DNA of 63,838 bases, filler included, from Kipferlia bialata (GCA_003568945.1; 5 parts of 5 records of this genome joined end to end with filler, not necessarily neighbours in it), one strand, 5' to 3'; numbered from the whole stretch's first letter, positions 6,737 to 62,530 are shown. Notes: generated by a model not told the origin, from the letters alone. Program-made: numbers and translations.

Positions 6737-7561
6737 CATGCCTGCGATGACCTTGGGGCTGTCAGTGCTGTGTGTCCAGCCAGTGATACATATACACTCA
6801 TATATATACACACACACATATATATATTTACATATACCTACATATATATATACATATATCTATCTCTCCATGCCTGCGATGACCTTGGGGCTGTCACTGC
6901 TGTGTGTCCAGCCAGTGATACTGACAGAGGAGGGGCAGACACCGCAGGTTTCCTAAGAATGAGTACAATTCATATGATATGATACATACTCATTATACAT
7001 ATATTGTTATGAATATATATAATGGAATACTGACAGAGGAGGGGCAGACACCGCAGGTTTCCTGGGGGTCAGCATCAACATCCATATATATAGAGAGAGA
7101 TACATATACATATATACATATATATGTATATATATACTGACAGCGGAGGGGCAGACACCGCAGGTGTTCTAAGAATGAGTACAATTTGTATGATATATAC
7201 ATACTCATTATACATATATTGTTATGTATACAGTGGTATGCTGACAGAGGCTGGACAGGTGTCCTAGATCTACTATACTGGTAGATACACAGATACACGT
7301 ATATATGTGGGACCACACCACACCACAAGACACCAAGATACTCGTAAGAGAGAGTAGGGGGGGGGGGGTCGTAAATATATATATACATACCACGCTTGGC
7401 CCACATACACACATACATGTATAGGTATATATATATGTGTGTGTGTGTAGAGAGAGAGAGAAAGAGAGAAACATACCATGTTGGGACTGTCCCAGAGGTA
7501 AGCGTTGGTGAATGCGCCAGAGTCGGTTGAGTAGTCATCGCTAGGAGTCAGAGACATACAG

Positions 7562-7604
<43 letters not shown>

Positions 7605-8357
7605 GTGGGGTGGTGCCGGAGTCCGAGGAGGGGTCAGAGATACGCAGTAAATATATACATAGATATACATATATATATAGAAAGAGAGAGAGAGACCAGG
7701 TATGCGGTGGTAAATGCTGGGGGAGAACGGTAGAATATATGTATACATATATACATATATATATTGAGAGAGGGAGTCATAACAATATGTACAATATGAA
7801 TACTCATATGTATAATGAATACATAAACTTGTATAGAGAGAGAGAGAGAGAGAAAGAGAGGGAAAGAGAGGGAGCCTGCACTAGGGTCAATAATGCAATT
7901 GATGCATACACACACACATATATATATAGAAATAACTCCATATTAATGTATATATGTGAGAGCGCTTACCCTGTAATGAATATATACATATGCATAGAGA
8001 GAGAGAGAGAGAGAAAGAGCGCTTACCCTGTAATGAAGAGTACGTCATCAACGTAGTCTATGTATTTACCGTAGGACTGAATGCTGGGGAACTCGTAACT
8101 CTGAAGGGTCAAGGGAGGTCAAGAGAGGTCAACCCGGGGGGGGGGGTCATATACAATGACACGTATATAGGTACATGTATAGAGCGAGAGACAAAGTAAA
8201 TTCACTTATATATAATTGTATATATATGAATGATTGAATATATATACATGTAAGTGTATACATACCCTCTGGTACTCCCAGGACAGGTTGTCTGCGGCAC
8301 GGGTGTAGAAGTAGACGGTGTCACGTATCTGGAGGTGAGAGCTTATACACAAATAGG

Positions 8358-8396
<39 letters not shown>

Positions 8397-9209
8397 ACGG
8401 GTGTAGAAGTAGACGGTGTCACGTATCTGGGGGTGAAAGGATATATATATATATATATAATAATATACAAATATATGCATATTTATATAGTGAGAAAGAT
8501 ACACATATGGGAGGAGAGAGAGAGAGAGACGAGAAATGAGGGGAGGGGGGAGAGAGAGAGAGAGAAGAGAGAACCGATATCTTGTCTCCAACGACTATAG
8601 TATGAGAGAGAGGATATATATATAGACGCTGAATGTTGTTTTGTTCTACACTATATCTGTACCTTGTCTCCAACGACCAGGTATATGTATGAATAGACAT
8701 ATAGATGCATACATATGCATACAGACATATGCATATATATATATATATATACACTGTACCTTGTCTCCAATGACCAGGTTGTCACCTGAGAGAGAGCATA
8801 TATATATATATATACACTGTATGAACTGTTCTACAATATATAGTAGTTCTATAGTATATAGTAGTGCATGTACCTTGTCTCCAATGACCAGGTTGTCCCC
8901 TGAGACACCAAGGGAAAAACCAACTGGGGGTGAGGTATATATCTATACATCTATCTATCTATATATATTTATACATATATGCCAACGAGGGACGTACCAA
9001 CTGGGTGTGAGACGACTATATATCAGGATATATATATATTCATCATCGTACTATGCAACATATACAAATATATATATATATATCACTCACTCACATGTGT
9101 GCGTGGAACCGCTGATGGAGGTGGGGGGAGCAATGGTGTCGGTGTAGGTGTAATCCCCAGTGGTGGCATCGCGGGTGTAGGTGATGACACTCTCTGGAGG
9201 GTCAGATAT

Positions 9210-60712: not shown

Positions 60713-60747
<35 letters not shown>

Positions 60748-61116
60748 CTTATACATACATACTATATACCTCATCTGTCCGCAGTCCCTCTCCATGTTGC
60801 CACACATGGACTGGGCCTGGGCATAGGCCTTCTCGAGAGAGGCCTACGGGTAAGTAGGTATATACAATACACACACACGCATATATATTTATGTATATAT
60901 ATATACAGGGACTGGGCCTGGGCATAGGCCTTCTCGAGGGAGGCCTAGGGGTAAGTATATAGTGAGTATACAGCTATTCATTGATAACTAAATAGTATAA
61001 ATACCTTGTCCTGAAGCTCTGCCTGGACCCTGTTGATGAGCCTCTCCTGCTCGGCAACGGCACTGGACTAGGGTGAGATATATACATACATATGTAAAAA
61101 CATATAAACATATATG

Positions 61117-61158
<42 letters not shown>

Positions 61159-62530
61159 CCTCTCCTGCTCGGCAACGTCACTGGACTGGGGAGATTGGTA
61201 TGTATATAGATAGATAGAGACTCTATACTATGTATACATACCTTGCTGGCCTGGAGCTCCTCCATGGAGTAGATCATCTCGTTGAGACGGCCCTCCTGAG
61301 TATTAGGACATAAATATACAAAATCCAATGAAATTGTGTATTGGAATTCATGACACATATCTTCCCCACCTGCATCTGGATGGTGGCCCCCATCCTCTGC
61401 ATATGTATATATATATATATAGGTATATACATGAGTGTATATGAGTGTATACACACACACACATATATATGTCCTTCCTACCTGCATCTGGATGGTGGCC
61501 CCCATCCTCTGCAGCTTCTCCTCTGTCTCTCTCTCCCTCTCCCTCTGGGCAGCCACCTCAGCGGCATCAGAGGCGTGGGAGGCCTTGGCCTGAGGGTAAG
61601 GTATTAATAATATGTAAATATATATATAGAGAGAGAGACAGAGAACGTCAGCGGCATCAGAGGCATGGGAGGCCTTGGCCTGCAGTGAGTGTAATAGGTA
61701 TATGAATACAGATATACAGATACATGTATGCATATAGAGAGAGACCTCAGCGGCATCAGAGGCGTGAGAGGCCTTGGCCTACAGTGAGTATAATAGGTAT
61801 ATAAGTACAGATAAACAGATACATATATGCATATAGAGAGAGACCTCAGCGGCATGGGAGGCCTTGGCCTGGAGGTAAGGGGCAATACATATATACTTGG
61901 TATACTGGAACCTATACAACACAATAGATGTACTAAGTATGTACCTTGATGAGCTCCTGCTCCATCTCCCCAGCAGCCACCCTAGCAGCAGCGGCCTCAG
62001 CCTCCTTGTCCTTGACAGTGCGACGGAGGGCCTCGACCTTCTCCTTCTGGGCCCTGTGGTGAGTACGCACACACAGTATACATTTCTATTATACTTTTAC
62101 TATATATACATTTCATTACTATTACTGCGAAAATAGGGTATACGTGTAAATTAAGTATCACTACACCCACCTCACAGTGTTTGTGACATTCTCCAGCTCA
62201 AGGGTCTTCTGCTCGAGGCTCTTGGTCTGAGGGGTGAGAGGGTGTATGATATCAATTATTACTATTATTTGACAGAAAGGAGAGGGCTCTCTCCTTCCTT
62301 CCTTTCTCTGTATATACATACACCCCTAACCTGAGAAGCGACGTTCTCTGCCATGTCATGTGCCCTCAGGATATATACACACCACAAACACACCATGTTC
62401 ACACTATATATACATGTATTAACAATACCCTACCTGGGAAGCGACCTTCTCGGCCATATCGTCTGCCCTCCAGCCCTCTGTGGCCAGCTCATTCCTCAGA
62501 CCCTCGATGACAGCAGTGAGAGAGGCAATC
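58263..62530 (-). CDS. Long Ala/Glu/Lys-rich coiled-coil protein, C-terminal portion, 5' truncated
   Basis: Exons read TLRAKLAEKEAELAE, ALAAEVAAKEAVIAEKE, SQLQAQMNSMTLDYQ and AKASHASDAAEVAAQRERERETEEKLQRM. The last exon is QHEASESESEEFDMPQ* (stop 58263-58265). Confidence 0.72.
61555..61872 (-). repeat. Exon-echo array (AKASHASDAAEV x4)
   Basis: CAGCGGCATCAGAGGC-TG-GAGGCCTTGGCCT at about 61558 (real), 61648, 61748 and 61847. Confidence 0.88.

Follow-up and report, generated by a model that had tools for sequence, protein, structure and literature searches.

What are partial copies of exons doing in the introns that flank them? The question is raised by a 63,838-nt stretch of DNA from the fornicate Kipferlia bialata (GCA_003568945.1), hereafter the window, which consists of five contigs with N-linkers between them and to which the analysis was confined. 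An earlier note on this sequence had described, in XRN1 and several other genes, introns that store variants of the adjacent exon ends, and had proposed that these copies stem from functional versions of the gene that had diverged or act as a reservoir for gene conversion. We call the copies echoes. The answer we favor, with a probability of roughly 0.6, is that echoes are non-adaptive duplications of ∼100 nt across exon–intron junctions, which freeze alleles of a recombining population ∼20–25% diverged at silent sites.

Eight genes with 166 exons and 158 introns were modeled by script. Two of the models agree with deposited K. bialata proteins at every residue: XRN1 (KIPB_000491, P0001; 1508/1508 residues), which has a Pfam XRN_M match, and a PP2A-like EF-hand gene (KIPB_000511, P0002; 757/757 residues), which has a Pfam EF-hand_13 match and which we take to be of the B'' type, as the earlier reader named it. 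The remaining six are script predictions only, and the FG-GAP-like and ARM-like labels are also the earlier reader's names. Using a codon-blind, ungapped scan, we compared each exon with its own neighboring introns. Matches with more than 60% 2-nt periodicity and scores below 13 were excluded, as were 3 nt at each free end and the last modeled FG-GAP exon. As a control, each exon of at most 250 nt was compared with 10 random non-adjacent introns. While the control gave a single copy in 313,069 nt, 132 exon-derived copies of 13–62 nt (median 32) were found in the 66,050 nt adjoining the 166 exons. Copies are present on four of the five contigs and in 65/158 introns, forming 85 arrays of 1–7 copies (56 with one, 20 with two, 4 with three, 3 with four, and 1 each with five and seven), which is the range originally reported. 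They are also in the genes originally named, except that those ascribed to an "Sds3-like" gene belong to a likely separate gene with an HD motif. The genes with copies are listed here, with the ratio of non-synonymous to synonymous divergence between copies and exon (dN/dS) for the two that match deposited proteins.

10098..26648, minus strand: XRN1 gene, 46 modeled exons, the 5' part lying past the contig end; 69 copies within 11200-26648; dN/dS 0.122.
50019..57023, plus strand: PP2A B''-like EF-hand gene, 27 exons; 20 copies within 50268-56377; dN/dS 0.127.
58173..62621, minus strand: second coiled-coil gene (predicted); 15 copies.
32019..35014, plus strand: likely gene with an HD motif (predicted), lying downstream of the Sds3-like one; 14 copies; weak Pfam HD-CE match (E 0.059).
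35618..38317, minus strand: first ARM-like paralogue (predicted); 8 copies.
46330..48609, minus strand: second ARM-like paralogue (predicted); 3 copies.
6737..8791, minus strand: FG-GAP-like gene (predicted); 3 scored copies.

Three more copies in the FG-GAP-like gene, at 6737-6790, 7029-7061, and 7138-7170, were recognized by eye and lie outside the count. No copies were found in the 18 introns of the first coiled-coil gene, and only 1 match was found beside 28 exons of four further gene regions. Unlike the second coiled-coil gene, the first (26927-30581, minus strand) has short, TA-poor introns (mean 70 nt) and the highest GC content at third codon positions (0.82).

The copies have a strict polarity, as the earlier note stated: 60 reproduce exon 5' ends and lie upstream, 68 reproduce 3' ends and lie downstream, 4 are internal, and none is reversed. 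The splice dinucleotide is retained in most of them (AG in 56/60, GT in 63/68). Almost all (128/132) are anchored at the exon end, the tandem unit crossing the exon–intron boundary of its own gene, and copy flanks resemble the cognate intron more closely than they do other introns (P 1e-3 to 1e-8). The polarity requires no special mechanism, since whenever one junction is duplicated in tandem the spare acceptor ends up upstream or the spare donor downstream, and duplications of whole exons or whole introns would presumably harm the protein. The copies are always partial: they cover 21–63% of the exon (5th–95th percentile), at least 14 nt are always absent, and no whole-exon duplicates with both splice sites, as in mutually exclusive duplicated exons, were found among them. 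In the 16 introns with copies of both 5' and 3' ends, the two kinds never interleave.

Each copy comes with a regularly spaced repeat unit, of median length 104 nt (interquartile range 94–116), and intron length is well described as 119 nt plus 99 nt per copy (r 0.88, 158 introns). Copy number increases with the TA-repeat content of the intron (rho 0.55). The same free end is shared by 31/81 copy pairs, and flank similarity is weak (median z 0.88; z of at least 2.5 in 21/119). Indels are as scarce as had been claimed, save that 2/132 copies align better with a gap. Two copies that might be placed behind terminal exons may both end at weak donors; one of them, in a coiled-coil gene, is among the 132. 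Purely intronic duplicates also occur: 13 were listed, a number that short introns make unfair to compare with echoes, and three were judged independent of any splice junction (11673-11765, 33932-34051, and 56660-56740). The following arrays of the XRN1 gene illustrate the pattern.

25900..26293, minus strand: the 3' end of exon 26339-26469 in five copies at intervals of 81–97 nt, a GT donor accompanying each; a mosaic of silent variants.
26499..26648, minus strand: 5' 60 nt of exon 26339-26469, present twice; the nearer copy has a near-identical intron flank, with 7 silent and 0 non-silent differences.
15628..16216, minus strand: 5' end of exon 15466-15547 in seven copies; the acceptors differ, each being near consensus.
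14923..14973, minus strand: 51-nt copy that matches the 3' end of the XRN1-region exon 15039-15125 without a difference, then an unrelated-looking donor flank.
20774..21158, minus strand: 3' end of exon 21216-21342, present four times.

How the copies differ from the exons carries the argument about their origin. Mismatches at codon positions 1/2/3 number 75/40/207 (over 1306/1316/1303 sites), which bears out the third-position excess first described. That the differences are overwhelmingly silent does not hold generally, since 121 of the 322 (38%) are non-synonymous and XRN1 and PP2A B'' are the only genes with a strong bias. For all copies, dS is 0.25, dN 0.042, and dN/dS 0.164, with a 99% interval of 0.10–0.25 when bootstrapped over the 85 arrays. 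When each site and letter is counted once, 171 silent and 114 non-silent changes remain (ratio 0.20); changes private to a single copy are 52 silent and 39 non-silent (0.24). Stop codons, said to be absent, number 2, or 3 by a count of single changes, for which 4.8 are expected. The null used initially, in which a dead copy shows mostly non-synonymous changes and a dN/dS of ∼1, proved too lenient. The proper null is a dead copy compared with an exon that still accumulates silent changes, for which theory gives 0.5 and dead copies simulated under AT-biased mutation and scanned in the same way give 0.37–0.39, setting the range at 0.38–0.5. This corrected null is beaten only in XRN1 and PP2A B'', where the 89 copies have a dN/dS of 0.121 (P 1e-13 against 0.38).

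Silent and non-silent changes appear to be of different kinds. Silent changes are symmetric (50 AT>GC, 64 GC>AT) and match the codon usage of the genes (P 0.73 against a usage-weighted expectation, 5e-10 against a uniform one). In contrast, non-silent changes are GC>AT-biased, 60 to 20, and partly conservative, with BLOSUM62 scores of at least 1 in 42% versus 31% expected. The changed proportions of non-silent (pN) and silent (pS) sites are uncorrelated (rho 0.11, 123 copies), pN staying at 0.03–0.05 while pS ranges from 0 to 0.5. In the 29 arrays with at least two copies, 14/708 non-silent sites are changed in the copies nearest the exon (pN 0.020) versus 48/1050 in the outer ones (0.046; permutation P 0.011), while pS is flat (0.20 nearest, 0.22 outer). 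Within copies, there is no clear gradient of divergence away from the splice site, and the four-fold sites of copied exon parts show no AT drift (GC 0.65 versus 0.61).

The splice signals tell a similar story. In this genome's modeled genes the branch point is fused to the acceptor, with YTNAY, 3–5 nt, and AG in 92% of the 158 acceptors. A similar fused pattern is described for Giardia, Spironucleus, and Trichomonas (PMC6679479; here and below, statements on cited papers refer to the parts of their text available to us), and here it is seen in an intron-rich fornicate. Echo sites score almost as well as real ones (acceptors 8.2 versus 9.2, donors 5.9 versus 6.2), far above other intronic AG (−3.5) and GT (−1.5), and echo acceptors keep the branch motif in 95% of cases. 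As many as 33/121 outscore the real site, by a matrix trained on real sites, and 8/127 copies have lost the dinucleotide. At variable positions, echo sites share only 55–57% identity with the cognate real site, compared to 33–42% for unrelated sites. Since silent changes resemble codon usage, non-silent ones are AT-biased, splice sites differ while remaining strong, and the nearest copies are the least decayed, a copy would first have diverged while its coding sequence and splice site were both functional and then decayed neutrally by ∼2–4% after disuse. Splitting dS and dN in XRN1 and PP2A B'' puts silent divergence before capture at 0.22–0.28. This agrees with the original proposal that divergent but functional gene versions supplied the copies. 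Because a chromosome can have only a single functional copy, other chromosomes are the likely place of this divergence, and we infer that the sources were other alleles.

Could the copies instead be under selection now, either as a gene-conversion reservoir or because exon ends are so often overwritten or replaced from them that harmful changes are purged? Low dN/dS, intact splice sites, and few indels would fit, as would the mosaic nature of the arrays, which show four gametes at 2/4 informative site pairs, and the finding that the real intron flank best matches an outer copy in 10/28 arrays. However, non-silent changes look neutral, being AT-biased and rising outward, splice dinucleotides are being lost, and at silent sites the nearest copy resembles the exon no more than the others do. 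By our own estimate, such selection needs a diversity of at least 0.3, so a very diverse population would be required anyway, and housekeeping genes presumably offer no motive for diversification. Silent-cassette archives (Borrelia vlsE, Neisseria pilS, trypanosome VSG, and chicken Ig pseudogenes) diversify one antigen or receptor under a dedicated system. They resemble echoes in keeping partial, frame-preserving variants beside the expressed sequence, whereas echoes belong to housekeeping genes, are mostly silent, and decay. No cassette-type variant was seen in transcripts, with 0 other letters over the 1.65 kb covered by RNA and DNA contigs, which drop rare variants. We found no evidence for the reservoir once suggested for these introns, and consider current selection unlikely.

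The simplest alternative has no allelic input at all. If echoes were clonal dead duplicates preserving older states of the exon, the silent bias would reflect the selection that acts on the real exon. Certain copies are clearly recent cis duplicates whose flanks match, the best-matching flank is the nearest one in 18/28 arrays versus 12.1 expected, and the 43 copies of the other five gene models fit this explanation (dN/dS 0.36). A clonal model with duplication, promotion of or copying from echoes, collapse, deletion, and conversion never fell below a ratio of 0.386 in any of 288 parameter sets, yet XRN1 and PP2A B'' lie at 0.12. Private changes are also silent-biased, pN does not track pS, and splice sites differ yet are strong. 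By our own arithmetic, silent exon sites would need to evolve 5–7 times faster than introns, when the flanks are actually the more diverged. Flank similarity has no predictive value for pS, flank and exon part having separate histories. We regard a purely clonal origin, too, as doubtful.

Diverged copies within the same cell (paralogues, homeologues, or a second haplotype) would be expected to produce the same two-phase divergence. A part of the PP2A B''-like gene was compared with two sequencing runs of one sample. Run X1 is DNA and may be the source of the window; run X2 was taken as RNA by guess, its contig being spliced at GT..AG. Contigs drop rare variants and rare isoforms.

53150..54800, plus strand: stretch compared with the sequencing runs (1.65 kb); six scored copies, all spanned by a single DNA contig and all skipped by an RNA contig.

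From end to end of this stretch the single X1 contig (2165 nt) shows 0 differences, and its depth of 454 is like that of other long contigs listed (379–510). Extra depth came from short unlisted matches at 53374-53485 and over the repeat-rich 54214-54437. Moreover, one XRN1 exon and one PP2A exon gave a single K. bialata protein match each, at 100% identity, and arrays hold up to five variants. Same-cell donors thus appear improbable: in this stretch a single version of ordinary depth was found, with no second one over most exons.

The strength of echo splice signals raises the prospect that copies are spliced in as micro-exons, alternative sites, or recursive steps and translated in some isoforms. 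The X2 contig is spliced at the five modeled GT..AG introns with 0 other letters, showing that in this stretch normal mRNA splicing is undisturbed by echoes. Partner sites at the free ends are no more frequent than in controls (a strong donor in 1/62 upstream copies, a strong acceptor in 0/70 downstream copies), unit lengths are uniform modulo 3, and use of the nearest site would give an open in-frame insert in only 8/77 cases. A role in splicing is therefore very improbable. Least probable of all is an assembly artefact in which haplotypes were concatenated at microsatellites, as short reads, a unit near 100 nt, the short length compared, and the possible identity of the DNA run with the window's source might suggest, because the separately built X1 contig reproduces the echoes, 91% of sampled words from 12000-21500 are present in the DNA run, and truncated exons with unique junctions are not expected from alleles.

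How might alleles be captured in introns? Each copy adds ∼99 nt to the intron, with an exon end and its splice site, and splicing takes the sites that bound the full exon, as seen in the stretch above. Because comparably strong orphan sites are ignored, this choice is probably made by exon definition. New units would form beside the exon and displace older ones outward, leaving the newest innermost, and the differences would stem from alleles ∼20–25% apart at silent sites. By one route, a break in an exon would be repaired from the homologue, with copying across the junction into the foreign intron and the ends joined rather than annealed; the donor's exon end would become functional and the old one the nearest echo. 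By another, an ordinary sister duplication would be followed by allelic exchange in the exon, with the same end state. Repair from the homologue is favored, and the data do not separate the two. Between alleles with barely alignable introns, homology would be limited to exons of ∼85 nt, and existing copies could multiply by misaligned homologous exchange, consistent with their shared free ends. Failed synthesis-dependent strand annealing (SDSA) followed by end joining produces tandem duplications in Caenorhabditis elegans (PMC8654963). Metamonads are described as being without non-homologous end joining, and fornicates as having lost Rad51A while keeping two Dmc1 (PMC8516963). The microsatellite-anchored recombination first invoked is not supported, since 39/132 free ends abut a 2-nt repeat and the background is 31%. 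That Kipferlia routinely repairs breaks in short exons from another strain's homologue, installing that exon end and splice site and pushing the old one into the intron, is a tentative suggestion.

Several results weigh against an allelic origin. The dN/dS of the five other gene models is 0.361, not distinguishable from that of dead copies (P 0.56), for which weaker protein constraint or model errors could be the cause. The contrast between nearest and outer copies is modest (interaction P 0.04), and the divergence of flanks, which exceeds that of silent sites, requires fast intron turnover. A second allele was not found over most PP2A exons in the DNA or RNA contigs of the 1.65 kb, in which rare variants are invisible; that stretch is all that was compared with the runs, and the DNA run may be the window's own source. 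Microhomology at the free ends is not enriched (P 0.36), and a metagenome scan with the XRN1 protein for other strains or related loci gave 51 pattern matches, none confirmed. A simulation with allelic input does reach ratios of 0.13–0.22; being rough and chaining alleles, it makes outer copies far more silent-diverged than near ones, unlike the flat pS observed.

Contrary to the belief that no such system had been described, echoes have a precedent in the mirage minisatellites of amphioxus, reported in Adh3, the globins BflGb6 and BflGb9, troponin C, and PGBD5 (PMC3087553, PMC3902484). In both, tandem copies cross one boundary at either exon end, AG/GT are mostly kept, splicing is undisturbed, and units are few. 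By the defining features that could be tested, echoes are mirage-type repeats; they differ from mirages in the protist host, the density, and the codon signature. Mirages were reported from single animal genes, whereas echoes are present in 65/158 introns of a metamonad protist. The intron parts of BflGb6 units align well (81–100% overall), whereas the echo exon part is 92–93% identical and the intron part often barely alignable. PMC3087553 calls the origin of mirages unclear and, in its available text, has no codon-level analysis ("synonymous" occurs 0 times), while echoes show a measured allele-like signature. Junction-spanning duplication is also known from intron gain (potato RdRp, PMC4974935; reviewed in PMC3443670), where a boundary is likewise crossed and a splice site copied; there a cryptic site makes a new intron, whereas for echoes no partner site was found at the free end, and the RNA joints in the stretch compared lie only at the original sites. 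C. elegans helq-1 and brc-1 duplications, ascribed to failed SDSA and polymerase theta end joining (PMC8654963), are similar as direct repeats with sizes from ∼100 bp. They use a sister template, have a median of ∼1 kb, and show junction microhomology, whereas for echoes a diverged homologue is proposed and microhomology was not detected. In the literature searched, which leaves most subscription papers outside its coverage, there is no report of exon-end copies in Kipferlia or any protist, and the available parts of the K. bialata genome paper (PMC5874029) and of PMC6679479 do not mention them.

The window offers further observations on its genes. The "Sds3-like" region (31064-35204, plus strand) likely contains two genes rather than one: an Sds3-like gene (Pfam E 0.013), whose second exon extends to a stop near 31750, and the HD-motif gene, which starts at ∼31935, holds all 14 copies of the region, and presumably resembles bacterial HD phosphohydrolases. 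The two tandem ARM-like paralogues (35560-42548 and 44457-48844, minus strand) have a similar exon layout, with 76% DNA identity across a 68-nt piece, and a further related model lies at 100-4300 (plus strand). A CFA20-domain gene (62833-63778, plus strand; Pfam E 2e-5) has no copies beside its 5 modeled exons. Long poly-G/poly-C runs at 6587-6634, 26836-26880, 31834-31934, 48959-49003, and 51187-51228, several of them at contig ends, are possibly G-quadruplex sites or causes of assembly breaks.

With 124,912 introns in K. bialata (PMC5874029), extrapolating 0.8 copies per intron gives tens of thousands of copies genome-wide. The 132 units add 13 kb to the window, which would explain much of the variation in intron length and probably some assembly or annotation errors. 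If exon definition operates as proposed, the skipping of strong orphan sites would place it in an organism whose introns are short and whose spliceosome is reduced (87/174 proteins, PMC6679479). At this density echoes can be analyzed statistically, and the results point to alleles; if that is what they are, diversity and recombination could be estimated from one metamonad genome. We know of no report of sex in K. bialata. Should repair from the homologue prove to be the mechanism, introns would be a polarized, dated, genome-wide record of past alleles, this one genome would document sex and ∼20–25% silent diversity in a free-living metamonad, and the process would be a main driver of intron length and of the turnover of intron sequence.

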